This document shows, in pieces, positions 3,023 to 43,575 of a DNA stretch of 64,000 bases. A program made the translations under genes and the position numbers. Source of the DNA: an uncultured Acidobacteriota bacterium. Lineage in GTDB: Bacteria > Acidobacteriota > UBA6911 > RPQK01 > JAPXNP01. Every line of letters starts with the position of its first letter. Position 1 is the stretch's first letter. The DNA lies in contig CAVZRV010000007.1 in assembly GCA_963777605.1 (NCBI GenBank), positions 416,001-480,000 on the forward strand. The letters are read 5' to 3'. The notes beneath the pieces were generated by a model that was not told where the DNA came from, did not search any database, and saw only the letters and a list, made by a program, of their open reading frames with translations.

Positions 3023-4765
3023 TCAGACCTGGACGGGTTGGGTGGCGTGCACCTGGTCGAATTTCTTCATTCCTTCCGGGTCGAGAGCCCACTCGTAGGA
3101 CTCCTTACAGTCCCGGTGGGAAGCATAATCACTCCGAATTGCATCGACGTCGAACCCGAAACTTCGCAACTGAATCGACTCCACAAAGCTGCAATTCGTC
3201 CTCACGGATTCGTCGTCCAGGACCCGGGAGGCGACATAGGCATAGATGAACCTGGCGAACTCCTTGAGGTTCGCCAGGTGGCGGTCCAGGACCTCCTCAC
3301 CCTCAGGAACCGTGACTCCGACTTCGTAGAAGCCGGTCTCGGCATACTTGAGGGGAGTCAGCTCCATGAAGTCGTTCAAGACCTTGTGAATCGGCAACTC
3401 CCGTTCCTCCTTCCACTGGTAGTAGTCGCTGAGGAACTGCTGGAGATTTCGATTGATGGGACCCAATTGTGCGAACTTCCTGAAGAAGATCTGGATGAAA
3501 TCACGGTTGGTGAAAAAGTCGTTGGCAACTGGGAAAACGTAGAAACTGAAGTATATCGCCAGTTCCCATGCGTACTTGAGCGTGAAGACTTCCTGGTCCC
3601 CCAGAGCGTTGTAGCTCAAGACATAGCTGGGAACATAAGCCTCGTAGAACACCTTCATCAGGGGTTCGTAGATTTGGCACTTCTTCTCGAGTTCGTCCTG
3701 GTCCCCGGACAGTATCGCGTCGACCACCATTGAGTTATAGAACGAGATCAAGTCCGAACCGGGGCTGTAGAGCGGATCGGTGAAGCGCCCCGCCATCCCC
3801 GACATACCCCACTTGTGTGGGCTGATGGTCTGTTTGCAGTCATAGGCGAAGCTCGCCAGGCGGGCGCTGTCCACCAGTCGCCGATTCCTGAAATCTCGCT
3901 CAAAGAGTGGAAACTCCTCGCAGGCCCAGTCAATCAGCTTCTCTGGGGTTGAAACCCGATTCTCGTCAAACAGGGCCCGATCGTAGACCAAACCCAGGCT
4001 CGTCAGGCCCTGGAGGGGGATCACCCAGAACCAGAAACCCTTCCCCATGAAGTGGTTCGTGGCCAGCCAGAGGGGGATCATGCCCTGTTCCCGCCGGTCA
4101 GACTTCTTCCGGATCTCGTCCAACGAGGCGTCGGTGAGCTTCTCGATGTTGATCAGGCCCTCCAGCCAGCACCATGAGGAGCCATGCCGGATTTCACTCT
4201 CCGCCGCCAGGTCGTTCTTTCGCTTGAGAAACTGACCACGGCCGGTCGTGTCAACCACCCACTCCGAGTCCAGTTCAACCTGTGCGCCCTCCAGCTTGAA
4301 GCTGACTCGGTGCCTGCCGCCCTCATCTAGTTCCACGTTCAGCGCGACTGCGGGATTGCAGAAGGTCACGTCGGGATGCTTGCTGTTCTCGGCAAGTAGG
4401 TGAGCCTCGAGGACATTGCGGTCCAACTGGTAGCTGCAGACGTTGGAGAGAGGGCGAATGTAAGACTGGCTGTAGTCCTCGAAATTGCGATCACCCGACG
4501 TCGTCTTCCAATAAAACCGCAAGTTGTACTTCAAGTAATGGTGGTTGAACAGGTGCTCCTCCAGGTCGAGAACCTTGGAGAAATAATATCCCCCCACCTG
4601 AACCAGGGACTCTCCAACTTTCTGTTTCTTCCCGGGAACCTCGGGCTTGTTGTCGAGCAGCAGGATCTTCTTGCCCGACTTGGCCACCAGAAGGTGGCGG
4701 CACAGGGACAAACCCGCCAGTCCGGCCCCAAGGATCACCACATCGTAATGTCTTTCAATTTTCAT
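3023..4765 (-). CDS. Flavin-dependent halogenase
   Basis: GAGLAG FAD motif, KVGES, candidate catalytic Lys in LKYNLRF, WFWVIP (WxWxIP) and FTDPLYSPG. GAGGTG RBS before ATG 4765. Confidence 0.82.
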   Translation of the reverse strand: MKIERHYDVVILGAGLAGLSLCRHLLVAKSGKKILLLDNKPEVPGKKQKVGESLVQVGGYYFSKVLDLEEHLFNHHYLKYNLRFYWKTTSGDRNFEDYSQSYIRPLSNVCSYQLDRNVLEAHLLAENSKHPDVTFCNPAVALNVELDEGGRHRVSFKLEGAQVELDSEWVVDTTGRGQFLKRKNDLAAESEIRHGSSWCWLEGLINIEKLTDASLDEIRKKSDRREQGMIPLWLATNHFMGKGFWFWVIPLQGLTSLGLVYDRALFDENRVSTPEKLIDWACEEFPLFERDFRNRRLVDSARLASFAYDCKQTISPHKWGMSGMAGRFTDPLYSPGSDLISFYNSMVVDAILSGDQDELEKKCQIYEPLMKVFYEAYVPSYVLSYNALGDQEVFTLKYAWELAIYFSFYVFPVANDFFTNRDFIQIFFRKFAQLGPINRNLQQFLSDYYQWKEERELPIHKVLNDFMELTPLKYAETGFYEVGVTVPEGEEVLDRHLANLKEFARFIYAYVASRVLDDESVRTNCSFVESIQLRSFGFDVDAIRSDYASHRDCKESYEWALDPEGMKKFDQVHATQPVQV

Positions 4766-4913
4766 ATGAATGCGCACCTCGCAGGACCCAACCTCTCGCA
4801 TCAGCGGCCCGAGCTCTTCATCCATGCTCGATCCGAAACGGCACTATCACTCCTGGGGGGAAATTTACTAAATGCGCTATATATTAACGTTTTTTTATTT
4901 AAACGAAAAGTTC

Positions 4914-5972
4914 CTAAAATGTCTCGATTTGTTCGACCAGCTGTTCGAGAGAGGCCATTCCATCGACCGGCGTTGCCAGTTCACGAATCCTCAGGAGCGG
5001 TTCGGAGCCGGCGGTTCTCGCCTCCAGGCTCTCCAAAACTCTTTTCTGCTCTCTAACCACGGCAGTTCCCCATGCCAGGGTCCGTTGATCACCGGGTTCA
5101 GTCGGGCTCAGCCCTTCCGGGGGCTCGGGCCAACAGCGATTGACGATGGTCCGAGGTGCTGGATAGTGTCGGGCCTGCAGCTCCCGTTCAAAGAATTCCA
5201 CGTCTCGTTCGGCTTTGTCCGGAATCGTGACAATGAAGAACCGAGCCGTCTCCGGGTCTCTCAACATGGCCGCTGTTCGCCGGGCACGTTTCGCGTAACC
5301 CTCGGCGATTGAGCGGAATAGCCCGTAAAAGTCGAGTACCTGTCCCACGACCCCGACTCCGACCAGCTCTTCCAGGCGGGCGTAGAGATCAAGAGAGCGC
5401 CTGCCCATCGCTCCAAAAGGAGATGCCGCCCAGACTCGGTAGGTGGCGCTGGCGATCTTGACCACCGGGAAAGAAACCAGGTCAGCGAAATACTCCGGCT
5501 TGTCGAGAAACTCAAAAGCGTGACGACTGGGAGCAGTATCGATCACCACGGCATCGTATCCACGGTTTAACGCCTGGTCGAGGTACTCCAGTGCCATCAA
5601 CTCCTGCATCCCCGACAGCGAAGTGATCAGCATCCGGTAAATCCGATGATCGAGGATCGACCGAACCTGGCGTGGATTGCCATAGGTCCGGACAGCGGTC
5701 TCGAGAGTGTGCTCAATGTCGAGCAAAGCAGCCCACAACTCCCCGGCAAATGAATCGGGGAGAGCAACCCGGTGCTCACCTCCGCGATTGTCCAACCCGA
5801 GCAACCCCTTCAGCCTTCTGGCAGGATCAATCGTCAAAACCAGGGTCTTGTGCCCGGAATGAGCGTACTTCATGGCGAGGACGCTGGAAACCGTGGTCTT
5901 GCCAACCCCGCCCGTCCCCACCAGAACCGCAATCCGAGTTTTCCTTCCACTTCGGCCTGTCGCCTCGTTCAT
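4914..5972 (-). CDS. ArsA/Get3-family ATPase (second subunit of pair)
   Basis: GTGGVGKTT P-loop, TIDPARRL, SGMQELMALE, VIDTAPSRHAFEFLD. Confidence 0.88.
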   Translation of the reverse strand: MNEATGRSGRKTRIAVLVGTGGVGKTTVSSVLAMKYAHSGHKTLVLTIDPARRLKGLLGLDNRGGEHRVALPDSFAGELWAALLDIEHTLETAVRTYGNPRQVRSILDHRIYRMLITSLSGMQELMALEYLDQALNRGYDAVVIDTAPSRHAFEFLDKPEYFADLVSFPVVKIASATYRVWAASPFGAMGRRSLDLYARLEELVGVGVVGQVLDFYGLFRSIAEGYAKRARRTAAMLRDPETARFFIVTIPDKAERDVEFFERELQARHYPAPRTIVNRCWPEPPEGLSPTEPGDQRTLAWGTAVVREQKRVLESLEARTAGSEPLLRIRELATPVDGMASLEQLVEQIETF

Positions 5973-6910
5973 GGGCTCTCACCCCGTGACTTTCGGCCCC
6001 CAATCATGCCGAGAAGGCCGGCGCCGGAGAGCTCCTCGGCCAGCCCTCCCAGAAATGCGAGGTCGGCAAACTGCCGCGGCCTGCGCTCCAGAGCCAGGAC
6101 CGGACAGGAGAGCGCCTCCCGGATCCGACTGTGCTGCGCACGTTCTGCCGCAACCTGGGATCGGGCAAACCGGCCCCACTCGCCAAGACCACGATAGTCC
6201 GGAAGAGCCTCCGATCCGGCCACAGGGCCCTCGTTCGCCAGGCACACCAATTCCGGCGACACCAGGTTGCAGATCGCCACGCCTGCGTTCATGCCCAACT
6301 CCTCGAGTCCCTGTTCCAACTCGAGGGTTTCGTCAACCGACATTTCCTCAGGAACGCAGACCGGGACAACAAAGGGTGACGCTCGCTCGATAAAATCACG
6401 AATCTGCCTGCCCTGGCTGGCAAGCGGTCCCGAGAAAAACTGTTCGAAATTCCGGGCTACTCGAAGGGTCTGCAGAAAGTGGCCGGAAGCGGGTGCGTCC
6501 CAGACAATCACATCGTATGACTGAACTCAATCCGGTTGGGCCGTTCCGATATCGGTCAGTCTCCAAAGGAACGCGAATTCCTTCAACCCAGGAACAACCT
6601 CGATGAAATTCGTGTAAATCCGGCTCTTGACGAGAAATTCGGCAATCCCAGAGGGCCTGATCCGGGACCTAACCATCCCATCCAGGACGTTCTTTGGGTC
6701 AAGGTGAACCACGAAGAGTCTTTTAGCAGCCTCCGGTTCACTATCCTCGATCCCTTCCAGGTTGATGGCGAGGGCCAGTTCCGACAGCGGGTGAGAAGAC
6801 ACGACCAGCGTTCGGCTGCCCCGGCGGCTCAACGCCAGCCCCGTCGCCACCGACAGAGTGGATTTCCCGACTCCACCCTTCCCACAAAAGACAATCAGGG
6901 ACACTGCCAC
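5969..6910 (-). pseudogene. ArsA/Get3-family ATPase (first subunit), interrupted by one in-frame TGA at 6529-6527
   Basis: ORFs 6527-6910 (GKGGVGKS, VPGLKEF) and 5969-6511 (WDAPASGH, VCVPEEMSVDET) share a frame: ...QPD-TGA-VQSYDVIVWDAP. Confidence 0.8.
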
Positions 6911-6962
6911 AATCGACTACCAGTCAAGCAGAGGTTCAATTCGGGGATTCCAATCGGACCGG

Positions 6963-8459
6963 CTACCGTCCTCGCGCCACAGAGAAAACCAACGCCACAC
7001 CACACAACAGCGAGGCGGCGGCCAGCAGAGTCCCAAGACCGGAACCCTCTGCAGAAAATGCCCCTTGGAGCGTGGCCAATGAGGCAAGCAGCAGTACCCC
7101 GCCGAACCAGGATCGCCTGGATTGGCTCTGGTTGGGCGAAGACGTTGTGGTCGACACCGAAACGGAAAGGTCATTTTCCCTCAACTGCTCGACAAACGAA
7201 CTCACCTGGCGCACTACCCCCATCATCAACAGACCGCTCCCGACCGCCCACTCGCGGGCTTTCTCAATGCTCATTGTTTGGCTCACCCGCAACTTCACGA
7301 GCCGGGACAGAACCGTCGCAACACCCACAACAAACTGGTCCACTTTACGGCTTGCCATCTTGGGGCCGAGAAGCACCAGTTCGCGTTGAAAAAAATCAAG
7401 GAAGAATGGAACCCGAACTCGACTGCCGGCGAGGGCCTTCCAGAAATCCACCAACTTCTCGACAGAATCGGGGAATCGCCCTTCTCGGTCCATCTCGAAC
7501 CGGAGCCCGGAGAGTTCTCTCCAGATTTCCGACTCGGGGATCACCACCTCCTCATTCCGGGTCATGCGTACCAGCATCCGCATGGCACGCCCGGAGTCTT
7601 CCGCAATTGATGAAGCCACGTACTGGATAAGGGGCTGGTAATGCTGGATTGGAAGAGACTCCATGAAGGGCCAGACGCGATATCCGAACTTCCCCTCCCC
7701 ACAGGCCCGCATCTCGTCGAATGAGTCATCCACCGCGATGCAGGAAAGAATCAGGATCTGCTCAACCACTGCCTCCACCCATCGAGTAGAATCACTCTCC
7801 CCATCCGCTCCGGGTTGGCGCACGGGTTGCCCTTCGGTCAGCGAGTAGGCGAGGATGTTCGAGCGCTGCAAATCGGGGATCAGTTGGGGGATTTCTGTCA
7901 CGCATCCCGGTGGTGCCTCCTGGAGTGTCTCCAGCATCCGCCGCTTGCGTCCCAGATCAGCATGAAGGTCGAGCCACTTGTGGAAGGAGTGAAGGACATC
8001 CGGCTCCAGGATGCGCGACTCCGGGAACCCTTCCAACTCGGAAACGCCCGCTTCGAAATCCTTCCAGGCCGATTGATCTACGCCCGCGTCCGGCACAGCC
8101 ACCTCAAGAATCACGATCCGGCGACCGAAAAGAGCGCGAAAAGACCTGGTGAAATACGACCGGGTCAGTTCCTCGACTTCGAGGGCTTCAACAGGCAGAT
8201 CGAGCGGCCCATCCGGCCCGAAATAGGGGGCCGTCACCTGTTCGAGTTCATCCAGGTAGGGATTGGGCAAGAAATCCGCACGACCGGATAGAAAAACGGC
8301 AAACGCCTGGAAGTAGCCGCCCAGTTCCTCGCATGCGGAGCGAAATCCGGTCGCCCGGGAAAGAGTGCTACCGGCCAGAAGGGGCCCCCGACCCCAGCCC
8401 CGAGACCGGGCCAGCCCGTAGTCCTGCCAAACCGTTGAAGGGTTTCGTCTGGGATTCAC
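6963..8459 (-). CDS. AarF/UbiB (ABC1) kinase-like protein, catalytic motifs degenerate (pseudokinase)
   Basis: FRSACEELGG..FLSGRADFLP..YLDELEQV matches the UbiB N-terminus, and two C-terminal TM helices are present. KxGQ, VAVK, HADxHxxN and DFG are not recognisable. Confidence 0.7.
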   Translation of the reverse strand: MNPRRNPSTVWQDYGLARSRGWGRGPLLAGSTLSRATGFRSACEELGGYFQAFAVFLSGRADFLPNPYLDELEQVTAPYFGPDGPLDLPVEALEVEELTRSYFTRSFRALFGRRIVILEVAVPDAGVDQSAWKDFEAGVSELEGFPESRILEPDVLHSFHKWLDLHADLGRKRRMLETLQEAPPGCVTEIPQLIPDLQRSNILAYSLTEGQPVRQPGADGESDSTRWVEAVVEQILILSCIAVDDSFDEMRACGEGKFGYRVWPFMESLPIQHYQPLIQYVASSIAEDSGRAMRMLVRMTRNEEVVIPESEIWRELSGLRFEMDREGRFPDSVEKLVDFWKALAGSRVRVPFFLDFFQRELVLLGPKMASRKVDQFVVGVATVLSRLVKLRVSQTMSIEKAREWAVGSGLLMMGVVRQVSSFVEQLRENDLSVSVSTTTSSPNQSQSRRSWFGGVLLLASLATLQGAFSAEGSGLGTLLAAASLLCGVALVFSVARGR

Positions 8460-8544
8460 AATACTCCCGCCGCCACGCCAACCTGTTTCACAGCCGAAAC
8501 CCCTCTGTCTGCCGGCCCTGCCGACCCTTCAAGAACCGGAAAAA

Positions 8545-8976
8545 TCAGGAGGCCTTGGCCCTCGCTTTTCGCTCTGAACCACCCAGCGCCTCGGACGCCG
8601 GCTGTGGCGCTTCCCCGGAGCTCTCGCTCCCACCGTCCATCCAGCTCATGACTGAGTCCGACGTCCGTTTCACCATGTCCGCCGTATTTTTCACCATTTC
8701 ACGAGGGTCGGCAATGGTGGCCCCGACTCCCGAGAAAGCACGATGAACGGTGTCTTCGGAAACCCGCGTTACCGTGTCGAGCGTTTCTCGCTTACTCTGG
8801 TCGACATGGTTCATCACGGCGTCTGAAAAAGCGTCCATAGTCTGGCGCATCCGCTCGAGCGGAGCAGTCATATCTTCACCCGAACCCACCGATGTTACCG
8901 CTCCCTGGACCTGCTCGAGGCCGAACAGCGTCATCGCGGTCGAAAATCGCATCATGGAAACAAGAAACTTGTCCAC
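8545..8976 (-). CDS. Small helical hypothetical protein (phasin-like composition)
   Basis: GGAGG RBS before GTG 8976. Met/Ala/Ser/Thr-rich amphipathic sequence, lying between the two UbiB genes. Confidence 0.7.
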   Translation of the reverse strand: MDKFLVSMMRFSTAMTLFGLEQVQGAVTSVGSGEDMTAPLERMRQTMDAFSDAVMNHVDQSKRETLDTVTRVSEDTVHRAFSGVGATIADPREMVKNTADMVKRTSDSVMSWMDGGSESSGEAPQPASEALGGSERKARAKAS

Positions 8977-9148
8977 AGAAACCTCCCTCTCTAAAATATT
9001 TGGTTGAAACTGGCTCAATGAGTACCCGCACTTCGGGTCCTTGAGGATTTGGAGTTAGAATACCTCTCAGATGGTCCCTTTGTCCAGTATAAGGTCTGTA
9101 ATTGCACTCTGATCCGGCAATCTTACAGAGTTGTTGCCTGGCCCGCCG

Positions 9149-12505: not shown

Positions 12506-12542
12506 GATTCCGGCCCTCCCTGTACAGGAATTCAATGGAAGC

Positions 12543-16688: not shown

Positions 16689-16704
16689 CGTCCCGATTTC
16701 AGGA

Positions 16705-16732
16705 TTGACTTTATTGAAAAGAACACTATCCT
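16705..16732 (+). promoter_or_regulatory. Putative sigma70 promoter for the 16826 gene
   Basis: TTGACT-N16-TATCCT in an AT-rich gap. Confidence 0.35.
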
Positions 16733-16747
16733 TTATTGATTCCGAGA

Positions 16748-16776
16748 ATGATACTTGGTGGAATCATCTAAATCAA
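16748..16776 (-). promoter_or_regulatory. Putative sigma70 promoter of the HMGR-fabG-crtI-tetR operon
   Basis: TTGATT-N17-TATCAT on the minus strand. The -35 overlaps palindrome AATCAACATTGATT (16771-16784). Confidence 0.5.
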
Positions 16777-16825
16777 CATTGATTGCCATGATTTGTTACT
16801 TCTGCTCGCGTCGGAACCTTTGTAC

Positions 16826-17749: not shown

Positions 17750-18730
17750 TTATCGGGCAGGGCCATTCGCCCATAATGGCGCCATTTCCTCCAGCAGGTT
17801 CTGATGAACCCGCCCGTGGAGCCTCAACATTACCGCATCCATACGGTCGTGAAAGCGCCGGCTCAAACGGATGCTTCGCAAGGTAAGGAGATCGAGAAGT
17901 TCAACCACCGAATAGACAGGATCGAACCCTCGCAAATCCAAAATCTTCTCGCTCCGCGGGGCCACGATGAAAGCCAGCCTGATCTCCAGGGTTCGGTCCG
18001 CCATCAATGCGAAGTGAAACTGCTTGATTGCGCTGCGGAAGTGTCCCGGCCCAAAACCGAAGATGTTGGGTTCGGGAGCGAGCGGCAGGAAGGCATACCC
18101 AAACGCCACTTCGGCCACGACCACCTCCCCGGCTGGGATCAGCGGTTGAGAGAGTGCCGGAATCACGGTGATCAATGCCGCCTCACGGACCCGTCGGCTC
18201 ATGGGGCGAGCGACCGGGCGCATCATCGGGATCGCTCTCACGAAATCATGAATGTCAACCCGAAGCAGCTTCCACTCGAAACCGCCGAGGCCAAAATCAG
18301 CCTCCCCAGAAGGCGGGGATTCCGGCGCATCGGCGCCGGTTCGCCGGGCCAGGACCGGCGCATAACTGAATCCTCCCCGGTCTCCGTCCTTCCGCTTCCA
18401 ACTGGAGTACCGGGCGAAGGTAGTGGGGAGTTCCTCGACAAACCGGGCCGCTGCGTTTGAGTCAATACCCATCTCAAAGCGGGCCCGTTGCAGACACCCC
18501 ATCACGCTGCAGCCGTCGCCGAGAAAATCGTAAAAGCAGTCCATGGCCACAAGCGAGCCACCCGGCGGCCTCAGGGGAAAGGTTCTGGAAAGGACTCTGG
18601 CACGCTGTTGCTCCCACCAACCGAGCAGCGCATTCCCGGTATCAATGGCCTGCCGGTTTGCCGGCAAAAGTACATTCGGCGGGAACAAATGGGACTGGGA
18701 ATCCGCGGATGGTTGGGACGGCGAGGGCAA
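17750..18730 (-). CDS. Hypothetical protein
   Basis: 326-aa ORF with globular, aromatic-rich composition (FGYAFLP, FGFGPGHF); stop abuts the convergent gene. Confidence 0.7.
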   Translation of the reverse strand: MPSPSQPSADSQSHLFPPNVLLPANRQAIDTGNALLGWWEQQRARVLSRTFPLRPPGGSLVAMDCFYDFLGDGCSVMGCLQRARFEMGIDSNAAARFVEELPTTFARYSSWKRKDGDRGGFSYAPVLARRTGADAPESPPSGEADFGLGGFEWKLLRVDIHDFVRAIPMMRPVARPMSRRVREAALITVIPALSQPLIPAGEVVVAEVAFGYAFLPLAPEPNIFGFGPGHFRSAIKQFHFALMADRTLEIRLAFIVAPRSEKILDLRGFDPVYSVVELLDLLTLRSIRLSRRFHDRMDAVMLRLHGRVHQNLLEEMAPLWANGPAR

Positions 18731-18822
18731 TCTACACCCCGGTTAAAGACGTGGCGGGAGTTCGCCCGCGGCGATCGGGAAGGCTACCACCCAATCGCCA
18801 CGAGCACTAACTGCGAAACCGA

Positions 18823-19413
18823 CTAGAAGTCGAACTGGTCACTGTACACTTCAGCGTAAACCGAACCAATCGCCGGGTTCTTGGCCGGAGTCGTTCCCAC
18901 ACCCTTGCAGGGGAACTTGCGGCCTATCAGGGATTGGTACTTGCCGGTGGCTTCGACGACTTCGTAGATGCCGGTGTAGGGTCCGCCGAAGGCGACGATG
19001 TCCTTGCGGGGGTCTTCCGAGGGACCCTGCACCGGAACGATGAAACGTCCCTGGACCTGGACCCTGAAAAGAATCTGATCTCCCTCAGGGTCGACCAGCA
19101 GACAAAGGTCGTCAGCCGCGAATTCCGGCGGCGGAATCGGCAGAAACTGGAAATTAGTCGTTGCGGTTCCCGAGATGGCGCCCCGGAACGTGCCGGTCCT
19201 GACCCCGTCACCAGTGGCCGGAAAATCGGTCACAACGTCCTGATGAATGAAGAGCAATTTCGGCGACTGGAGCATATCGGTTTCGGGGTCGATACCATTA
19301 CCATTGTCTCCTCTGGTCGTCGCTCTCACGCCGGCCAGCGCCCAAACCGCGCTCAGTGCAATCAGCAGCAATGCCACACCGATAATCTGTTTCCTGGAAG
19401 CAAAAGACTTCAT
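18823..19413 (-). CDS. Secreted beta-rich hypothetical protein
   Basis: AAGGAAGGAG RBS, signal peptide, beta-strand pattern with YEVVEATGKY. Confidence 0.8.
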   Translation of the reverse strand: MKSFASRKQIIGVALLLIALSAVWALAGVRATTRGDNGNGIDPETDMLQSPKLLFIHQDVVTDFPATGDGVRTGTFRGAISGTATTNFQFLPIPPPEFAADDLCLLVDPEGDQILFRVQVQGRFIVPVQGPSEDPRKDIVAFGGPYTGIYEVVEATGKYQSLIGRKFPCKGVGTTPAKNPAIGSVYAEVYSDQFDF

Positions 19414-19496
19414 ACCCAAACTCCTTCCTTCTTAATTCACTGAGGCCGGAAGTCGAGGATTCGACCGCCCGCCTCCACCCGTAACTTTTCAGAGAC

Positions 19497-19895
19497 CTAC
19501 GCGAAAGACTCCTTGAGCGGAGTCCAGTAATAATCCACCCATCCCTTTTCGTATGATCCGGCCTGAGATACCGGAACGCGACTGTGAACCATCGTCAACT
19601 GCGTTCCTCCATCGCACGGAGCCAGGCGAATTTCGACAAGAGACGGGTCCTGGCCATCCGGCCATTCCGTCGTGCTCCATTCCTGAACGATCAGTCGCCC
19701 CTTTTCGAGTTTCAGAAAACGGCCCTCGATGTAGCCGTCCCATGCGGTGAAGACGGCTCCTTCGACCGCATCGCCGGTAGCTTCCGCCCCGGTAAAGGCA
19801 GAGTGCTTCTCAGCGTCAACCAGGGCCTCGAACACGTCGTTGGGAGTCGCCGGGATAATTTGAGACTGTTCGAAGGAGGTCGTTTTCTCTGCCAT
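19497..19895 (-). CDS. SRPBCC/AHSA1-like domain protein
   Basis: ATPNDVFEALVD, FTAWDGYIEG, LIVQEW, GTQLTMVH, GWVDYYW. Confidence 0.88.
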   Translation of the reverse strand: MAEKTTSFEQSQIIPATPNDVFEALVDAEKHSAFTGAEATGDAVEGAVFTAWDGYIEGRFLKLEKGRLIVQEWSTTEWPDGQDPSLVEIRLAPCDGGTQLTMVHSRVPVSQAGSYEKGWVDYYWTPLKESFA

Positions 19896-21763
19896 TAGGG
19901 AAGGGAGTCCTCCAGGTTGGGCGGCTTGGTGTTCACATTCGAGACGATCCCTCCGTCAACGATGATGCTGATGTAGGGAGCGTCCGGGGCATTCGAGAAC
20001 TGCACCGTTGCCAAATGCGGGTCGGAGTCCTTGCTCCAGGAACCGAACCCGCTGAAAGTCACCGTATCGAACTGCCCCTCGGGAAGCGTTGACCCTCTCG
20101 AGTTCGTACAACTGACCGACGCCAGGCTGTACATCTTGAAAGTGCCTCCATCCGAACTGTTGAAGTTCTGGTATTCAAAGAAGGCATCCTTTCCAACCGG
20201 GTCACACGACACCGAGTAGTTGTAGCTGAAGTCATCGCCAGTTGACGATATTGCCTGGCCGCTGTCGCTCATCACTACCTCGGATGGAGGTCCGGGATGC
20301 ATCGCCTGGATCCTCAGGAACGGATCCAGAGTGGATCCTTCGCCGGCAATCCAGCTGTTGGCCTTGACCAGATCAGGGGACGGGTACCGAAACCCGGAAA
20401 AGTCAACCGTGACGTCTCCGTTGAACCGGAAGACCGTCTGGCCGTTGACCCCATTTTCGAAAAGGGCCGGCCCCCTGAAGTTGAACGAGCTCGGCGCAAT
20501 GGCTCCGTCGTTCTGTTCGAGCAGCGCAAACAGCAGATCCTGTGCGATGAATCCCCGGTAAAGCAGCTCACCCAGGACTCTGCCGGTCTTCAGGTCAATC
20601 GCACCCAGGGCCAGGTCGAACGGATCATCCGCAAACGCTACGTCCTGGAGGTGATAGGTCTGGAGCGGAAACCGCAGGTACTCGTCGTGCCCAAGCAAAC
20701 CAACCGAGAGCCCCGGGATCGAAAGTGGAGTCTCCGGCGGTTCGGCCAGCAACCCGGCCGGCACCAGGCTGGACACCCAGAAAGGCACCGTATCCCCAAA
20801 CCGTGGCCCGAATTGAATCTGGATACGACCCAAGAGGTGCGACCGCCCGGTCGCAGTCCCGCCCAGTTGCGGGATATTCAGGTTAAAGGCATCCCCGAAA
20901 CTGGTGTTGTGAGTAAAGGTCGTCAACTGCCACATGGTGTTCGTCGGGATCTCAGGACAGTTGTCCCCGCACGATTCGCCTTCCGGAGCAGCGGTGGAAA
21001 GCAACAGGTGAGGATGCAACGAAGTACCCGGCGACGGAATGCTGGCACAGTCCAGGCGAATGTTGCAGAAGGGGAGTGGAAACCGCGGGACATCACCAAC
21101 CAGGCCGCTTCCCTCAATCTTGTTCCCCAAAGGCAGGAAACTCGTACCGTAAAAGGTGAAGTCCAGCAGCCCGTCGTCGCGCTGCGAAAACTTCGCCCAC
21201 GATGAGCCGTACACCCCGGGAAATTTGATCACCGGGGCTTCCAGCTTCGGATTGACTTGGCCAAGAGCGTAGATCGCCGTGTTGATGAACAAGACGCGGT
21301 ATTCGAGATTGGTGACTTCACCCGTCTTCAGGTTGAGGTCCCCTTCCGATACGATCTGGTCCTGCGAATCGCTGACCAGCTCAAACTCGACCGGAAACTT
21401 GTAGAACTGGGGAGCTGCCAGCACGCTGTCGTCGCCAGACAACCCTCGCGGATGGGTCACTTCAAAGTGGGCAATGTCCTTGACCGGTTCGTAAAACTTG
21501 ATGTGCACGCTTCCGGCTAAGTGGGCATCGGTCATCGCCAGACCGCCGAAAAGCAGGTTTCCGCAGGTCCCGAACGGGTTATCCGCATCATCGGGGCAGT
21601 CGACCGCCCGCAAGGCATCTCCGAAATAACTAGTCTCAGAGTTGATCGGAAGGGTCTGCTCCAGTCCTGGCGGCAACTGCAGGGGCACGGCAAGATCGCC
21701 CTCGGAGGCAAAGAGACTGACAGGGAGCAGCGTAACTTGAGCAATCAGCAATAGACGTCTCAT
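19895..21763 (-). CDS. Secreted hypothetical protein with internal duplication
   Basis: Signal peptide, paired Cys, two homologous ~250-aa halves; coupled to both neighbours by stop/start overlaps. Confidence 0.82.
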   Translation of the reverse strand: MRRLLLIAQVTLLPVSLFASEGDLAVPLQLPPGLEQTLPINSETSYFGDALRAVDCPDDADNPFGTCGNLLFGGLAMTDAHLAGSVHIKFYEPVKDIAHFEVTHPRGLSGDDSVLAAPQFYKFPVEFELVSDSQDQIVSEGDLNLKTGEVTNLEYRVLFINTAIYALGQVNPKLEAPVIKFPGVYGSSWAKFSQRDDGLLDFTFYGTSFLPLGNKIEGSGLVGDVPRFPLPFCNIRLDCASIPSPGTSLHPHLLLSTAAPEGESCGDNCPEIPTNTMWQLTTFTHNTSFGDAFNLNIPQLGGTATGRSHLLGRIQIQFGPRFGDTVPFWVSSLVPAGLLAEPPETPLSIPGLSVGLLGHDEYLRFPLQTYHLQDVAFADDPFDLALGAIDLKTGRVLGELLYRGFIAQDLLFALLEQNDGAIAPSSFNFRGPALFENGVNGQTVFRFNGDVTVDFSGFRYPSPDLVKANSWIAGEGSTLDPFLRIQAMHPGPPSEVVMSDSGQAISSTGDDFSYNYSVSCDPVGKDAFFEYQNFNSSDGGTFKMYSLASVSCTNSRGSTLPEGQFDTVTFSGFGSWSKDSDPHLATVQFSNAPDAPYISIIVDGGIVSNVNTKPPNLEDSLP

Positions 21764-23136
21764 CGAGGGTTCCTCCGTGAGGGGGATTGGGGAGGTGGAC
21801 TGACCCGTCGACTGGACCGGGGAGTCTTGTCAGGGTTCACGTTCTCCAGTTCGGCTTTGACGCGAAGGATATTGCGCATCTTATCCCGCGGAATGAACCG
21901 GGAAAGTTCATCCAGGGTTGTCTCTGCCCCGGTGGACACCCGGAAATCGCCAACACTGTCGTCTGCGAGAATGTTCTCGACCGAGACCAGCGGATAGCTC
22001 TTGCCGTAGCTGGAATTCAGGAAGCTCAGAATCCCGTTCGCGATCAAAGCATGGCCGGTTGGCCCCGGGTAGTAGCCGTTCAGGGAATAAAGCCCGCCAA
22101 GGAAATCCGCCCCAAGCTGCTTGTCTCCCACGACGGCCCCGTTCACCTTGAGAGTGTGCAACTGCGCATTCAGGTCGTAGACCAACGCACCGTTCCGGCC
22201 CGCCACATCGGCAATTGCCGAATTCAACTGACTGACGTAGGCGGTCAACTCCGCAGCCGACTCCGCCGTAATGACCGAGCCGTTGGGCAGAGGACCCGAT
22301 GTCCGGGCAAGGAACTGGTTCCCAATCTCAACAAGCCCCGGCACCGTGATCCAGTCATCCACCGTGAGCCCGTACAGCCCGAGCACCACGTAGGGGAGGA
22401 CCCTGAGGAGTTTCGCACTCGAAACGGGGGAATTTGCGAAGGCGGTATCGAGAGGATTCGGTACCGTCATCACGACCACTTCGGCGTAGGTCGAACGCAG
22501 TCCCGAGATCACCGCCTCGTAGTCCGACCGAAACTGGGCCGGATCCGGCAACCGGCTGAAATCGCCCGTCGCCGCCGCATCGACAACCTCACTGTATCCC
22601 AGTTCCACCAGTGCAAACGTCGGCCGCATTGCTTCGGCGTACTCCAACTGGGTCCAGAATGGGACCTCATCTTCGAGAATCAGCTGCGGAAACCCCAGCA
22701 CGAAGTTGACCAGGGTCTGCTTCTTGTCCTGATCCTGAATCAAGGGAAGCGTCGGCCGGCGCGTGATCGAATCAGAAAGTCGCAATCCGGGAACCGAAAG
22801 GTTGAAAACGAACAAGTACGGAGGGAAAGGCTTCCGTACCGTCGTCTGCAGGGCGGCAGGAATCCGCAGGGGCAACTCGTTGTAGCCGACCACATTTCCG
22901 ATTCCGGGAGGCTGGAGATTCGGCTGCGGCAGAATTGTGCCTACCTGCTGGGCGATCAGTGCCGGGAAGGAGTTCTCCTGCCCCTTCGAACTCAGGCTGA
23001 AATTGTAAACTCCGGCTGCCATGCCCTCACCGAGAACGACGAATGTCGTCGTATCCAGGCGACGGGACGCTTGAGCTCCCAGGAATGGGCTCACCAATAG
23101 AAGGCAGAGAATAAGAACAACGGTTCGCTTCATCAT
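21760..23136 (-). CDS. Secreted SGNH/GDSL-fold protein lacking catalytic residues
   Basis: Signal peptide; FVVLGEGMAAG (block I), FNLSVPG, YSLNGYYPGPTGHALIAN (block V). Confidence 0.78.
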   Translation of the reverse strand: MMKRTVVLILCLLLVSPFLGAQASRRLDTTTFVVLGEGMAAGVYNFSLSSKGQENSFPALIAQQVGTILPQPNLQPPGIGNVVGYNELPLRIPAALQTTVRKPFPPYLFVFNLSVPGLRLSDSITRRPTLPLIQDQDKKQTLVNFVLGFPQLILEDEVPFWTQLEYAEAMRPTFALVELGYSEVVDAAATGDFSRLPDPAQFRSDYEAVISGLRSTYAEVVVMTVPNPLDTAFANSPVSSAKLLRVLPYVVLGLYGLTVDDWITVPGLVEIGNQFLARTSGPLPNGSVITAESAAELTAYVSQLNSAIADVAGRNGALVYDLNAQLHTLKVNGAVVGDKQLGADFLGGLYSLNGYYPGPTGHALIANGILSFLNSSYGKSYPLVSVENILADDSVGDFRVSTGAETTLDELSRFIPRDKMRNILRVKAELENVNPDKTPRSSRRVSPPPQSPSRRNPR

Positions 23137-23140
23137 GATG

Positions 23141-24583
23141 CTACCAATCCGGATCCAGGTTGTCCTGCCCAAGGTTGATTCTCAGGCCGAGGCCGCCGAG
23201 GTGGGCAAAGTTGTCGTAGACCCCGTTTGTGAATACATCGGCATTTGCGGCGACGTTGGTCTCGCGGACCATGAATTTCATCGCCTGGTAGAAGATGCTG
23301 AATTCCATGTTCCCCCGCGTCATCGACGCTCCCGCGGTAAAACTGTGCCGGCTGCTGTCGGGAAACAGCGGCCCGGTACTCTTGTCGGGAACCGGGCTGT
23401 GGTCGAACATGTAGCCGCCACGGACGTCCATCCCCCACTTGAAGGGGTGTTCGTAACCCGCGTTGATCTGGTAGGAGTTGTTGAAGTCAAACTCGAGTCG
23501 CAGTTCCTCCGGCGTCGCGACATCCACGGTCTGACTGAAATTCACCGGAACGCTCTTGAACCGATGATAGTCCATATATTGGAAATCAAACGCCGCGGTT
23601 CCGCCGAACACTTCCTCCTTGGCCACGGCCACCTTGTATGACGCCGGTGTCGTGAAGGAGCCCTTGATCGGCTGATCGGGAAAAAGGTCGGGAATCGTGT
23701 CGGCTCCAACGAAAGGCTCCAGCGTGTAACCGGTCGTAAAAGCAAAGGTGGCCCTTCCGTCAAGGTGATGGGTCACCGCGCTTCGGTACATCGCCCCGAA
23801 GTTCATCTTGCGCTCAGGGTCACGGTGGAGAAAACCAAGGTTGAACCCAAGACTCTGGCTCGTTCCGGCCAGCCGGGAGCGCCCCTCGGGAAGGAGGCGC
23901 GCAATCGCCGGGCCGGCCAGTTCGGGATCTTCGCCTGGGAAAATCAGGTTGGACAACTCCTTCCCGAACACGATCCCGTCGTCGAGCGGGTTCAGGATGC
24001 TCTGCTCGAGCATCAGGTGAGTGTGGACCAATGCCACCCCGAGGGCTACCGCCGTGTTGGGTCTGACCCGGTACGCTACCGTCGGTTGAAACCAGATTGA
24101 CTCAAGTCGCGCCCGGTCGCCCGCGTAGCGGGCCACGAACTTGGTCTCCTGCGGGTCACTGTCCTTGAAGCTGGTCCAGTTAGCCGAAAGACCGAACGGC
24201 GAGAAGACTCCGAAACCGAAGGTCAGTTTCTCGGAGAGGTCCTTGGTCATGTACATGCTCGCCACTGGTATCAGCTTCGGCGCCACCGACCCGTTGAATC
24301 CCTTTTGTGGGACGTACTGGCCGGCCGGCGTGTCGAAAGGAGTGAAGCGGAAGAGACCGACGACTCCCAGGGAGTCCATTTCCATCCGCAAGCCCTTCTG
24401 GAAGGCAATACCGGCGGGATTGTAGAAAAGGGCGGAACCGTCATCGGCAATCGCCGCAAAGGCACCTCCCATCCCCATCGCCCTGACACCAAGCTCATAG
24501 ATTGAAAATGCCGACGCATCCAACCGTCCTGAGACTGCAAAAAGGGAGACGCAAACTAGAAGAACGAGCTTTTTCGCGGTCAT
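23141..24583 (-). CDS. fadL: OmpP1/FadL family outer-membrane hydrophobic-compound channel
   Basis: Signal peptide, AFSIYELGVRAMGMGGA, DDGSALFYNPAG (NPA motif), PFGL, RGGYMFDHSPVP, PDSSR. Confidence 0.88.
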   Translation of the reverse strand: MTAKKLVLLVCVSLFAVSGRLDASAFSIYELGVRAMGMGGAFAAIADDGSALFYNPAGIAFQKGLRMEMDSLGVVGLFRFTPFDTPAGQYVPQKGFNGSVAPKLIPVASMYMTKDLSEKLTFGFGVFSPFGLSANWTSFKDSDPQETKFVARYAGDRARLESIWFQPTVAYRVRPNTAVALGVALVHTHLMLEQSILNPLDDGIVFGKELSNLIFPGEDPELAGPAIARLLPEGRSRLAGTSQSLGFNLGFLHRDPERKMNFGAMYRSAVTHHLDGRATFAFTTGYTLEPFVGADTIPDLFPDQPIKGSFTTPASYKVAVAKEEVFGGTAAFDFQYMDYHRFKSVPVNFSQTVDVATPEELRLEFDFNNSYQINAGYEHPFKWGMDVRGGYMFDHSPVPDKSTGPLFPDSSRHSFTAGASMTRGNMEFSIFYQAMKFMVRETNVAANADVFTNGVYDNFAHLGGLGLRINLGQDNLDPDW

Positions 24584-25503: not shown

Positions 25504-25504
25504 C

Positions 25505-26800: not shown

Positions 26801-26866
26801 CTGCGCATTCTACAATCTCAGGCCCTTGGTTTCGATAAACTGCGGATTCATCTCGAGGACTGACAA

Positions 26867-29224: not shown

Positions 29225-29361
29225 CTCACTCCTCCAAATTGCAGTTCGGTTCGTAACAACTCCCCCAAGTTTCAACGCCGAGAAGATATTATATAGGTTT
29301 GGCGCCTTGCCCAGCAGGACGCTCCCATCGAAACACATCCCAAGGGAGGAGACTTGATCAT

Positions 29362-43521: not shown

Positions 43522-43575
43522 GCTCAGCGGAGAACTTCCGACGGAAGCTCGCCGTCAGAACACTTGAGAATTGTC

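Follow-up and report, generated by a model that had tools for sequence, protein, structure and literature searches.

A conserved gene cluster of soil Acidobacteria for a putative fatty-alcohol-based lipid

Eighteen genes lie between positions 3023 and 24583 of the 64,000 nt stretch of Acidobacteriota DNA analysed here (the window), raising the question of whether they constitute a single pathway and, if so, what it makes. The cluster is real and conserved among soil Acidobacteria, and its product is most likely an unusual, possibly halogenated, fatty-alcohol-based lipid that would be handled in the cell envelope. Several of the parts are already known in the literature; this combination of genes has not been described.

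Organisation of the cluster

An ORF listing, together with Pfam and NCBIfam scans, recovered 18 genes, all minus-strand apart from a single plus-strand gene at 16793-17749. Coupling is tight in places, with 4 nt overlaps at 21760-21763, 14716-14719, 13163-13166 and 5969-5972, a 1 nt overlap at 19895 and a gap of zero at 10795/10796. For the FabG-type gene the most probable start codon is ATG 15456, which corresponds to Met57 of the longest ORF and results in a 1 nt overlap with the reductase stop codon. These analyses reproduce the gene number, strands and coupling given in a preliminary description of the locus, and profile scores or motifs bear out its FadL, SRPBCC, FabG, CrtI-like, acyltransferase, UbiB, ArsA pair, TetR and halogenase assignments. 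The genes are as follows:

3023-4825, minus: flavin-dependent halogenase homologue, 600 aa, with a C-terminal extension
4914-5972, minus: BagB-like ArsA/Get3-family ATPase (PF02374, 87.5 bits)
5969-6910, minus: BagA-like ArsA/Get3-family ATPase, with an in-frame TGA at 6527-6529
6963-8459, minus: degenerate UbiB-like protein, 498 aa, with a C-terminal hydrophobic tail (BLASTP against UbiB, E 8e-5)
8545-9018, minus: small helical protein, 157 aa
9149-10795, minus: UbiB/ABC1-family atypical kinase with two C-terminal hydrophobic helices (PF03109, 218.6 bits)
10796-12535, minus: fusion of a NAD-binding epimerase-like domain and a PlsC-type acyltransferase, 579 aa (PF01553, 55.5 bits, residues 336-465)
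12543-13166, minus: TetR-family regulator (TetR_N and TetR_C_7/C_11)
13163-14719, minus: CrtI-family FAD oxidoreductase, 518 aa (TIGR02734, 180 bits, below the cut-off of 238)
14716-15456 (longest ORF to 15624), minus: FabG-type short-chain dehydrogenase (adh_short_C2, 213 bits)
15456-16688, minus: FcrA-type (class I HMGR-derived) acyl-thioester reductase of an Acidobacteriota-specific clade (PF00368, 341 bits)
16793-17749, plus: all-alpha protein, distant DUF1702-like candidate (database gene start 33 nt downstream)
17750-18730, minus: conserved 326 aa protein (orthologues at loci L001, L097 and L098)
18823-19419, minus: small secreted protein, 198 aa (N-terminal hydrophobic signal-like segment)
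19497-19895, minus: SRPBCC/AHSA1-family small ligand-binding protein (PF08327, 71.7 bits)
19895-21763, minus: secreted protein, 622 aa, modelled as two tandem beta-barrel-like domains followed by a C-terminal beta-sandwich (AF2 pLDDT 90)
21760-23172, minus: SGNH/GDSL-like secreted protein without the nucleophile Ser (PF13472, E 4e-4)
23141-24583, minus: FadL/TodX-family outer-membrane channel (PF03349, 130 bits)

An FcrA-type reductase

The reductase has the class I HMGR fold and retains the catalytic residues E106, K235, D309 and H399. Its earlier label of HMGR-like is correct as regards the class I HMG-CoA_red domain, but the protein is of a kind already described: FcrA, a fatty acyl-CoA reductase derived from class I HMGR that was published in 2025 and is defined by three changes in the HMG pocket (PMC11948995). 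Two of these three are present in the window reductase, in which Ser278 is equivalent to Lys735 and Phe395 to Leu862, whereas the third is missing, the Ser684 equivalent still being Ser in a HMMER alignment, with a one-residue deletion alongside. As Ser684 is kept, and the equivalents of Asp690 and Lys692 are replaced by Glu and Arg respectively, the substrate may differ from that of the characterised FcrA. In a tree with 15 canonical HMGR rows across the split, from which the published reference FcrA sequences were left out, the window reductase falls on the non-canonical side, within an 18-row clade composed entirely of Acidobacteriota (support 100). An identity as the HMGR of the mevalonate pathway was rejected: in whole-genome searches HMG-CoA synthase is absent and no mevalonate kinase scores above the cut-off, and Dxr is present.

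Co-occurrence with dedicated ketosynthases and other partners

The absence of PKS and ACP genes, as originally described, holds for the region itself, but a trio encoding an ACP, a ketosynthase (KS1) and a dead ketosynthase (KS2) lies on the same contig about 200 kb away (C7:637063-639810), and is orthologous to the trio adjoining the cluster in relatives. The Cys-His-His triad is found in all ten aligned KS1 rows, and the triad is dead in 9/9 places with a KS2 row. Their best PDB matches are 9s5h_B (498 bits; runner-up FabF, 336) for KS1 and 9s5h_C (244 bits; runner-up 186) for KS2. This dedicated ACP/KS pair is part of the system.

Co-occurrence was assessed in one fixed set of 201 Acidobacteriota genomes. 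The window-clade reductase is found in six. Each of these six also encodes the halogenase homologue, the CrtI-like enzyme and the special KS, any of which is present in only one or two of the other 195. The halogenase homologue occurs in these six plus G124, the contig of which stops just past KS2, where the reductase stands at locus L003; the CrtI-like gene (at least 50% identity) is found in the same seven genomes, and the special KS1 in these and G108. The 622 aa double-barrel protein is found in five, every one reductase-positive. Hence the association of the reductase with its four partners (CrtI-like enzyme, halogenase homologue, active and dead KS pair, and double-barrel protein) is almost all-or-none, although the seven positive genomes represent only four families, and kin are not independent. 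Three of the four sampled members of family f1 have the whole set, and the other, G159, has none of it.

Gene order varies between lineages. In G180 it is ACP-KS1-KS2-plus318 abutting halogenase-BagB-BagA-pseudoUbiB-157aa-UbiB-AT-CrtI-SDR-reductase, and in G005 ACP-KS1-KS2-reductase-CrtI ... AT-UbiB-halogenase; the halogenase and KS genes of G033 are on a different contig, and in G176 the genes are all present, spread over three contigs. Synteny between G100 and the window runs well past both ends of the cluster, so conserved gene order within the family says little. Outside family f1, the envelope block, plus318, the 326 aa, 157 aa and 498 aa proteins and TetR occur only in a few MAGs. The preliminary description had proposed one lipid pathway, which is partly supported: its modules do co-occur in other genomes, as the 201-genome sample reveals, contrary to the refuting observation it had named, but its HMGR-like label is outdated, the ACP and KS genes lie outside its gene set and its phasin-like assignment fails.

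Flavoenzymes and short-chain dehydrogenase

The CrtI-like protein matches PDB entries 4dgk and 4rep over its full length, and its gene is present at 14 of the 17 loci holding a window-clade reductase. As no PF00494 phytoene/squalene synthase was found, and the genome has no other full-length CrtI-family gene, the enzyme appears to act without an isoprenoid substrate. The FabG-type dehydrogenase scores 292.8 bits against TIGR01830 (cut-off 297.75), and neither a dehydratase nor an enoyl reductase was recognised within the cluster.

Both motifs (WxWxIP and a conserved Lys) and PDB matches back the halogenase call. Flavin-dependent halogenases, or a related flavoprotein, account for the best 11 of 14 PDB sequence matches, these including 8zop, Bmp2, CtcP, CmlS, PltA, PltM and CndH, and the motifs GAGLAG and WFWVIP are found at residues 33 and 265. 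Lys99 (KYNLRF) and WxWxIP are invariant in all five aligned homologues. The second FAD motif, by contrast with the usual 'GD', has Met in the window protein (GMAGRF) and Glu in the other four (GEA(G/C)RF). No flavin reductase is encoded within the cluster.

Acyltransferase, UbiB pair and BagAB

The acyltransferase fusion has weak epimerase, HpnA and AvaA7 matches across residues 78-287, conserved GxxGxxA, NHRGFMPFDG and FPEG motifs, and no PDB sequence match. The adjacent UbiB kinase scores 263 bits against TIGR01982 (cut-off 487), and its homologues adjoin FcrA-type genes at seven loci of other Acidobacteria (L103, L104, L105, L107, L109, L110 and L113). The 498 aa protein, described earlier as a pseudokinase, has no Pfam match; this designation gains weak support from its alignment with UbiB, which spans the KxGQ region near the N terminus, with AFAV standing in place of KFGQ, and from the aligned hydrophobic C-terminal tails (residues 472-490 in the 498 aa protein). 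Its orthologues, like those of the 157 aa protein, are found at L001, L097 and L098. The 157 aa protein, first described as phasin-like, is not a phasin homologue: it has no homology to PF05597 (hhalign probability 0.2%), only the L001 orthologue giving weak matches to Phasin_2 (E 0.012) and Phasin (E 0.29).

BagB and BagA are the best NCBIfam names for the ArsA/Get3 pair, the former scoring 182 bits against NF053621 (cut-off 521). Of the 201 genomes, 19 have a BagB homologue, and among these are 11 of the 12 with a cluster-type acyltransferase. The two halves of the BagA-like gene (N-terminal 6527-6910, C-terminal 5969-6511) share a frame, the TGA falling within a variable linker directly before the (W)DAPA(S/T)GH motif; G100 and G180 have intact orthologues.

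The envelope block

The FadL channel has an orthologue at L097 (79% identical), the 198 aa protein has orthologues at L097 and L147, and the SRPBCC orthologue also sits in the latter, the envelope block of G033. The SGNH-like protein had been called dead, and the nucleophile Ser is indeed replaced by Gly, block I being GEG or GDG in the window protein and in 6/6 homologous rows from five other places. Duplication within the 622 aa protein, another earlier suggestion, is visible as two tandem beta domains in the AF2 model but not by self-BLAST. In this model residues 267-492 resemble 8-stranded barrels, some of them lipid-binding, with middling Z values (BcnB 9.3, TT1927b 8.3, YceI 8.2, DynF 7.5). 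At least 405 homologues exist, many around 1000 aa, three of these having a recorded GDSL domain.

Proposed pathway and alternatives

There is about an even chance that these genes form the principal part of a system, conserved in Acidobacteriota, that makes a specialised fatty-alcohol-based lipid. From the observed family memberships, motif conservation and co-occurrence we infer a substrate, an order of steps, a halogenation, a product and a direction of transport. The dedicated ACP and a heterodimer of active and dead FabF-like ketosynthases would start or extend an acyl chain, in which the CrtI-family flavoenzyme could introduce or move C=C bonds and the FabG-type enzyme reduce a keto group; the halogenase homologue may chlorinate or brominate an activated carbon, either enol or alkene. 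The FcrA-type reductase would then convert the thioester to a primary alcohol with four electrons, and the acyltransferase fusion would place this in an ester or ether-linked glycerolipid. Membrane insertion and lipid handling may fall to the tail-anchored UbiB kinase with its degenerate paralogue and to the Get3-like BagAB pair, whilst the FadL, Ser-less SGNH, double-barrel, SRPBCC and small secreted proteins would carry either the hydrophobic product or a precursor of it through the envelope.

The cluster might instead serve neutral-lipid storage, the acyltransferase esterifying an FcrA-type alcohol to a wax-ester-like product, with the UbiB, small helical and BagAB proteins as lipid-body surface machinery and the CrtI-like enzyme and halogenase homologue only tailoring chains; we regard this as unlikely. 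Characterised FcrA does supply wax-ester synthesis (PMC11948995), and in other Acidobacteria W-type FcrA genes are flanked by UbiB, a PlsC-type acyltransferase or WS/DGAT and an ArsA pair, and accompanied by patatin, phasin (PF05597) and PhaR-like regulator genes, four annotated loci (L103, L105, L111 and L113) having some of these genes nearby and none having all. However, the 157 aa protein is no phasin homologue, patatin, PhaR and WS/DGAT are missing from the cluster (a WS/DGAT search of the whole genome gave no match, but its control likewise matched nowhere, which makes the search uninformative), and the co-occurring secreted and outer-membrane block is more in keeping with an envelope lipid than with storage in the cytoplasm. 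Slightly less likely again are alkyl-glycerol ether membrane lipids, made as by a disassembled Elb system in which the alcohol comes from the reductase and the fusion replaces ElbE and the acyltransferase domain of ElbD. ElbD combines FAR, ACS, ACP and AGPAT domains, ElbE belongs to the epimerase family (PMC9131029), and the fusion, likened to them by domain description, holds just two such kinds, epimerase-like and AGPAT-like; Acidobacteria produce alkyl ethers (PMC10087280), and some FcrA are proposed to supply ether-lipid synthesis with a neighbouring PlsC-like gene (PMC11948995). The ElbD-like FAR-AMP-ligase-ACP protein encoded elsewhere in the genome (C7:944192-948166, without an AGPAT domain) bears on both sides, fitting ether-lipid synthesis but already supplying a FAR-type reductase; moreover, an AGPS-like gene is missing from the cluster, and the halogenase and CrtI-like genes are left unexplained.

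It is improbable that FadL, the flavoenzymes and the reductase, under TetR control, take up and convert an exogenous hydrophobic, possibly halogenated compound for use or detoxification. FadL-family channels are importers in characterised cases, the TetR gene lies inside the cluster and the SGNH-like, double-barrel and SRPBCC proteins could bind a substrate, but the conserved core is elsewhere biosynthetic, the ACP and KS/dead-KS genes adjoining the reductase, FadL and TetR are missing from most loci of other lineages, and the cluster lacks an acyl-CoA ligase, a beta-oxidation gene and a dehalogenase. More improbable still is that unrelated operons merely lie side by side, linked only by the gene order of close relatives. 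The synteny with G100 beyond both cluster ends would fit this, as would the presence of at least two transcription units, separated by the plus-strand gene, which is convergent with the 326 aa gene and divergent from the reductase gene (promoter-like sites in the intervening 16688-16793 gap are overall not above chance). Against it, co-occurrence persists where the genes are dispersed, as in G033 and G176, and family f1 has everything in three genomes and nothing in the fourth.

Regulatory and uncharacterised genes

The TetR regulator is also found at L001, L002, L092, L093, L096 and L097. The 326 aa protein gave no Pfam, NCBIfam or Atlas leads. The all-alpha protein (AF2 pLDDT 93) has no match among solved folds or to the Pfam DUF1702 HMM; however, its Atlas features score 0.95 to DUF1702 clusters, and hhalign against four DUF1702 proteins gave a probability of 70.6% (E 3.9e-5). 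Three of its 36 homologues are fused to PilZ.

Gene content of the cluster

The 18 genes between 3023 and 24583, 17 of them on the minus strand, were reproduced with an ORF list and Pfam and NCBIfam scans; the gene overlaps and the zero gap claimed in the preliminary description are likewise all present in the ORF list. For the FabG-type gene, translation most likely starts at the ATG at 15456, the codon for Met57 in the longest ORF. One gene has the opposite orientation:

16793-17749, plus strand, sole plus-strand gene of the cluster (ORF list)

A scan for promoters and terminators gave counts that were not above those of shuffled sequences (8 against 4.8 +/- 1.9; 14 against 20.7 +/- 5.0). 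The genome carrying the cluster is 6.73 Mb in size and 96.7% complete, and the nearest named loci are without exception from Acidobacteriota MAGs.

A reductase derived from class I HMG-CoA reductases

The 410 aa reductase contains a complete class I HMG-CoA_red domain (Pfam, 341 bits), which bears out its earlier description as HMGR-like, but it reads as a predicted FcrA-type acyl-thioester reductase, in a genome without mevalonate partners. In this 96.7% complete sequence there was no match to HMG-CoA synthase (PF08540) and no mevalonate kinase above the cut-off (the best TIGR00549 score being 81 bits, against a cut-off of 163), whilst Dxr is present (460 bits). A role in mevalonate synthesis was rejected on these grounds.

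FcrA was described by Grossi et al. (2025, ISME J; PMC11948995) in bacteria without the mevalonate pathway, where it reduces acyl-CoA of C14 or longer, not HMG-CoA, to the alcohol, and is insensitive to statins. According to the same source, it retains the Glu/Lys/Asp/His tetrad with three changed HMG-pocket residues; the HMG-binding Lys735, printed as Lys795 in the paper, is replaced by a small residue, and in N. pharaonis FcrA Leu862 has become Trp and Ser684 has become Glu. When aligned to 6hr7 and a plant HMGR, the window protein keeps the tetrad Glu559/Lys691/Asp767/His866 as E106, K235, D309 and H399. Within the pocket set of mevalonate HMGRs, Ser684/Lys735/Leu862, both Lys735 and Leu862 are replaced, by Ser278 and Phe395 respectively. 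The former position is variable across the 18 rows of the window clade (S/H/Q/G/A/D/K), whereas canonical acidobacterial HMGRs keep Lys; the latter is Phe in 14 of the 17 clade rows having the column, the others being Met, Leu or His, and Leu in the 15 canonical rows. The Ser684 change is not reproduced: in the HMMER alignment Ser229 falls at this position, next to a deletion of one residue, and MAFFT puts Phe228 there. Ser is also kept by many W-type FcrA-like rows, hence this change may not be universal to FcrA. The DKK of HMGR reads EKR in the window protein.

A FastTree phylogeny was constructed from 117 rows drawn from the compared loci, exclusive of the reference sequences of the FcrA paper. 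In this tree, 15 canonical acidobacterial HMGRs (SGNYC-DKK, K-N, Leu) part from the 102 other rows with a support of 100. The window reductase lies on the non-canonical side in an 18-row clade (support 100), all rows of which are from Acidobacteriota, and which is separate from both a 67-row Trp-type FcrA-like group and a 17-row, mostly Bacteroidota, group comprising Sphingobacterium and relatives. It is therefore placed as a third subclade rather than within either of these groups. Given the kept tetrad, the pocket changes and this position, we read the window protein as a predicted FcrA-type acyl-thioester reductase of a new subclade. It resembles FcrA, as that enzyme is described in the paper, in the tetrad, the small residue at Lys735, the bulky one at Leu862, the host lacking a mevalonate pathway and the PlsC-like acyltransferase encoded nearby; it differs in its separate, Acidobacteriota-only clade, in having Phe rather than Trp at Leu862, and in lacking the N-terminal Lad domain. 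Annotations of 'HMG-CoA reductase' in genomes without the mevalonate pathway are probably wrong, which is a warning for annotators.

One compared locus, from a Thermoanaerobaculia MAG (L008), has two window-clade reductase copies, each preceded by a ketosynthase gene; one copy is followed by a CrtI-like gene and the other by a halogenase homologue.

The halogenase homologue and the CrtI-like enzyme

Of 14 PDB sequence matches to the 600 aa flavoprotein, the 11 best are to flavin-dependent halogenases or a related flavoprotein, although its similarity to those of the CmlS/Bmp2/PltA/CtcP type is distant (best E value 8.8e-13). In common with these enzymes it has the GxGxxG motif (GAGLAG at 33), the WxWxIP motif (WFWVIP at 265) and the conserved Lys, here Lys99 of KYNLRF, aligned to the KYG of 8zop; the motifs and the Lys are invariant in all five aligned sequences. 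It also shares a long C-terminal extension with CmlS and CtcP. Where known halogenases have a second FAD motif of the pattern GDAxxFxDP, the window protein reads GMAGRFTDP and the other four aligned sequences GEA(G/C)RF(S/L)DP, so that the Asp of 'GD' is replaced by Glu in the four and by Met in the window protein. The initial assignment as a halogenase is supported by the PDB matches and the retained motifs, and halogenation by this homologue is plausible on sequence grounds. Its substrate would probably be aliphatic or ACP-bound. No flavin reductase gene was found in the cluster by Pfam or NCBIfam.

The CrtI-like protein has full-length alignments to CrtI (4dgk) and to a carotene desaturase (4rep). 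As its genome has neither a phytoene/squalene synthase (PF00494) nor a second full-length CrtI-family gene, a carotenoid or hopanoid role was rejected, and the economical reading is that the substrate is non-isoprenoid, such as an acyl chain. A metagenome scan with this protein returned four loci, two of them useful.

An ACP and a pair of ketosynthases

The cluster itself contains neither an ACP nor a ketosynthase, as was remarked of ACPs and PKSs when it was delineated, but both are found elsewhere on the same contig (C7):

C7:637063-639810, ACP and two FabF-like ketosynthases, around 200 kb from the cluster, beside FG-GAP/ASPIC genes

In the Pyrinomonadaceae, Thermoanaerobaculia and other lineages, the ACP, active ketosynthase (KS1) and second ketosynthase (KS2) genes lie directly upstream of the reductase. 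All ten aligned KS1 rows have the Cys-His-His triad; in KS2 it is dead, reading L/T/A/I/S/E, then G/S, then E/D, in all nine places with a KS2 row. A dedicated ACP gene adjoins the two. The best PDB sequence match of KS1 is 9s5h_B (498 bits, the next FabF scoring 336) and that of KS2 is 9s5h_C (244 bits, the next scoring 186), such that the pair match two different chains of 9S5H/9S5I.

In anammox bacteria, an active and a dead FabF are reported to form a heterodimer that has a dedicated ACP and to decarboxylate malonyl-ACP, with Cluster I comprising amxACP, amxFabZ, amxFabF2, amxFabFmut, a phytoene dehydrogenase homologue and a B12 radical SAM enzyme (Granatino et al., bioRxiv 10.64898/2026.05.19.726425). 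As that preprint describes Cluster I, the acidobacterial set has in common with it the ACP, both FabFs and a CrtI/phytoene-dehydrogenase-family gene, the last being a likeness at the level of family membership; unlike Cluster I, it adds an FcrA-type reductase, a halogenase homologue, an acyltransferase fusion and UbiB. Neither a B12 radical SAM enzyme nor FabZ was present, as annotated, in the window cluster, the ketosynthase locus of the same genome, L001, L003, L004, L006, L007 or L008. Membership of the ladderane clusters was rejected because neither enzyme was recognised in these loci.

Secreted FG-GAP/ASPIC-UnbV (CRTAC1-like) proteins, some of them fused to TPRs, are encoded in L003, L004, L136, L138 and, in the genome of the cluster, L090 (13861-19917). 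Their genes repeatedly lie between or beside ketosynthase and CrtI or acyltransferase genes in several lineages. The name of the UnbV domain also derives from enediyne cassettes.

Distribution and gene order

Seventeen places with a window-clade reductase were compared: the window, L001-L010, L092 and L096-L100. In 14 of these a CrtI-like gene adjoins the reductase, or is parted from it by an SDR alone; of the remaining three, two are very short contigs, and in L099 the CrtI-like gene is carried by a different contig. In G180, from the same family as the window's genome (f1), the order ACP-KS1-KS2-plus-strand gene homologue directly abuts halogenase-BagB-BagA-498aa-157aa-UbiB-acyltransferase-CrtI-SDR-reductase. 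In G005 it is ACP-KS1-KS2-reductase-CrtI, then FG-GAP genes, then acyltransferase-UbiB-halogenase.

All phyletic counts refer to one fixed sample of 201 Acidobacteriota genomes. Window-clade reductases were detected in six of these (G000, which is the genome of the cluster, G033, G100, G180, G176 and G005), and the halogenase homologue in the same six plus G124, whose contig breaks off immediately past KS2, at the point at which L003 has the reductase. CrtI-like proteins with at least 50% identity are confined to these seven genomes, with weaker matches in G108 and G040; KS1 is found in the seven and in G108. The full-length acyltransferase fusion is present in G000, G033, G100, G180, G124 and G176, whilst G005 and five others have the acyltransferase half alone. 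Five genomes, all positive for the reductase, encode the 622 aa secreted protein, and the plus-strand gene is found in four f1 genomes, with one further weak match. The fourth sampled member of f1, G159, lacks the reductase, halogenase, CrtI-like, KS1, acyltransferase fusion and 622 aa genes.

The proposed co-occurrence of the modules in other genomes therefore holds across this sample, even where the genes are dispersed. In G033, a different contig carries the halogenase homologue and KS, and the envelope block lies at a distance of 60 kb; in G176, the genes are spread over three contigs, with the SGNH/622 aa gene around 13 kb from the UbiB-acyltransferase-ACP genes.

Acyltransferase, UbiB and ArsA-family genes

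In other Acidobacteria, Trp-type FcrA proteins with an N-terminal PF25653 domain are encoded near UbiB/ABC1, a PlsC-type acyltransferase or WS/DGAT, and an ArsA pair. The PlsC-type acyltransferases at these loci belong to the same NH(R/S)G...PFD subfamily as the window fusion, which itself had no PDB sequence match. A patatin, a PF05597 phasin and a PhaR-like regulator are also found near Trp-type FcrA, the holdings varying by locus. This PF25653-FcrA neighbourhood recurs in L103, L105, L111 and L113, also with PHA_gran_rgn, and although these loci differ in content, it looks like a gene set for neutral-lipid bodies.

The window UbiB matches the ABC1/UbiB superfamily only (PF03109, 218.6 bits), falling short of the equivalog cut-offs (263 against 487.55 bits for TIGR01982; 187 against 667 for NF003404). 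The degenerate UbiB-like protein of 498 aa aligns to the KxGQ region of UbiB, with the motif lost. Both proteins end in hydrophobic helices, and on this basis they are candidate tail-anchored clients of the adjacent Get3-like pair. This pair resembles BagAB and other Get3-ArsA pairs in consisting of two adjacent genes for ArsA-fold ATPases, here beside proteins with C-terminal anchors; it differs from BagAB in scoring far below the equivalog cut-offs (NCBIfam NF053621 and NF053622), and in the in-frame stop codon of the BagA-like copy in this genome:

6527-6529, in-frame TGA in the BagA-like ArsA gene (5969-6910), in the variable linker just before the DAPxxGH motif

No interruption is seen in the orthologues of the same-family genomes G100 and G180; the TGA may reflect a genuine nonsense mutation, a split gene or an error in the assembly. 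BagB-like genes were found in 19 of the 201 genomes, including 11 of the 12 having the cluster-type acyltransferase subfamily.

The 157 aa protein, which had been called phasin-like, has no Pfam match, no BLASTP alignment and an hhalign probability of 0.2%; its homology to phasins (PF05597/PF09361) was therefore rejected.

Envelope proteins and the plus-strand gene

FadL, the SGNH-like protein, the 622 aa protein, SRPBCC and the 198 aa secreted protein move as one block in G033. The suggestion that the SGNH protein is dead was substantiated: its block I GDS reads GEG or GDG, and hence lacks the nucleophilic Ser, in the window protein and all six homologous rows compared. The family of the 622 aa protein has at least 405 members, many of around 1000 aa, three of which have a recorded GDSL domain. 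In the AF2 model (pLDDT 90), two beta domains follow one another in tandem, with a sandwich at the C-terminus, so the description of this protein as duplicated fits its fold, but self-BLAST shows no internal repeat. Foldseek found nothing at E <=0.001. The second domain resembles eight-stranded barrels (BcnB, Z 9.3; TT1927b, 8.3; YceI, 8.2; DynF, 7.5), some of which are lipid binders, as well as outer-membrane barrels, and Z scores in this range indicate the general fold only. Pfam at E <=1 returned nothing credible for the 326, 498, 622 and 198 aa proteins, nor for a 406 aa protein of L001, and the Atlas gave no lead for the 326 aa protein (best 0.80).

The plus-strand protein belongs to a family of 36 members. 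Its AF2 model is confidently all-alpha (pLDDT 93), with no counterpart among solved folds by Foldseek and VIA (best Z 4.2). Comparison with DUF1702 gave an hhalign probability of 70.6% (E 3.9e-5, 111 columns) and an Atlas feature score of 0.95, whilst the PF08012 HMM matched none of 27 family members; the protein may be a distant DUF1702 relative. A figure legend in PMC7692728 labels DUF1702 as an enediyne biosynthesis protein family. Three family members (P0027, P0030 and P0033) are fused to a PilZ domain, which binds c-di-GMP.

Proposed function

Taken together, these genes could make up a biosynthetic pathway: an acyl chain dedicated to it would be desaturated, perhaps halogenated, and converted to a primary alcohol by the FcrA-type enzyme; the alcohol would then be esterified or ether-linked by the acyltransferase fusion, and the product handed to the membrane and envelope handling proteins. 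We hold this reading with moderate confidence, giving it about an even chance.

A wax-ester-type storage system would use the same step from acyl chain to alcohol, and WS/DGAT genes do occur near some Trp-type reductases; the window reductase departs from FcrA, as the published text presents it, in having as neighbours a CrtI-like gene, a halogenase homologue and a KS/dead-KS/ACP set, not WS/DGAT, and we consider storage rather unlikely. An ether-lipid route like that of the myxobacterial Elb operon (Lorenzen et al. 2014, as summarised in the review PMC9131029) appears slightly less probable. As the review outlines Elb, the likeness is one of logic, which calls for a reductase that yields an intermediate at the alcohol level, together with a carrier protein, an acyltransferase of the AGPAT type and a protein of the epimerase family; unlike Elb, the window has these domains on separate proteins and a reductase that is HMGR-derived, not FAR-type. 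The same genome encodes a 1324 aa ElbD-like protein (C7:944192-948166; L170:193-4167) with FAR (NAD_binding_4 and Sterile), AMP-binding and ACP domains and without AGPAT, which raises the question of whether it partners the window's epimerase/AGPAT fusion.

FadL could import a compound for the flavoenzymes and the reductase to convert, but in other lineages the ACP and ketosynthase genes lie next to the reductase, and a system for uptake and conversion seems improbable. That the genes are mere neighbours seems more improbable still. Synteny between G100 and the window runs from past FadL to past the halogenase homologue; as this extends beyond the ends of the cluster, synteny within the family carries little weight, and since the seven positive genomes fall into four families they are not independent. 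The genes nevertheless stay together phyletically even when dispersed.

The preferred biosynthetic route also admits a bolder version, which is speculative and which we think unlikely: that the ACP, active/dead FabF pair and CrtI-type desaturase are an ancient module producing a conjugated polyunsaturated chain, which would be halogenated, released as an alcohol by the new HMGR-derived clade and displayed in the outer envelope, the core being the same as that of the presumed ladderane cluster of anammox bacteria. If true, one of the most abundant phyla of soils would harbour a class of lipids, halogenated polyene alcohols or ethers, that has so far gone undetected, and the system would allow a tractable aerobic comparison for the role of the shared core in ladderane synthesis.

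Acidobacteriota rank among the most abundant bacteria of soils, and palaeoclimate proxies in wide use are founded on their unusual lipids; to our knowledge, most of their lipid genes have no assignment. The parts of the cluster are known in kind, namely FcrA (2025), flavin halogenases, the KS/dead-KS pair, UbiB and Get3-like ATPases. Neither the combination nor the acidobacterial reductase clade had a match in the literature searched, a scope exclusive of subscription journals and preprint supplements, and this literature held nothing on FcrA beyond the original paper. In the cluster, a newly recognised enzyme type, the HMGR-derived acyl reductases, meets a dedicated chain-building module whose characterisation has otherwise been confined to anammox bacteria; a flavin halogenase homologue is added, and the whole is tied to trafficking genes of the outer-membrane and Get3-like kinds. 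For lipidomics this gives concrete targets, namely fatty alcohols, alkyl or ester lipids and Cl/Br isotope patterns; it also offers a comparative handle on the roles of the active/dead FabF pair and the phytoene dehydrogenase homologue, and of UbiB and BagAB in bacterial lipids.

Surrounding genes

A second lipid-like gene set lies 18 kb from the cluster, and is absent from all the related loci compared:

42019-48700, plus strand, second lipid-like set: 500 aa unknown, amine-oxidase-type flavoprotein, 436 aa unknown, ACP, AMP-binding protein (acyl-AMP ligase-like) and lipid-A-acyltransferase-like protein

The window starts with a DDE transposase (DUF772 and DDE_Tnp_1_6; 2-1429, plus strand), its first 2 kb having a high GC skew, and an IstB-like ATPase gene is found at 30089-31186 (minus strand). 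Flanking the cluster, 24739-27958 encodes a secreted 254 aa unknown, a DUF1015 protein and a homologue of deoxyhypusine synthase of the homospermidine synthase type (NF001980, 555 bits); the synteny with G100 includes the latter two, but not the 254 aa protein. A 451 aa protein with no family match is encoded at 27983-29338 (minus strand); dozens of paralogous matches to it are spread through the genome, frequently arranged in tandem arrays.
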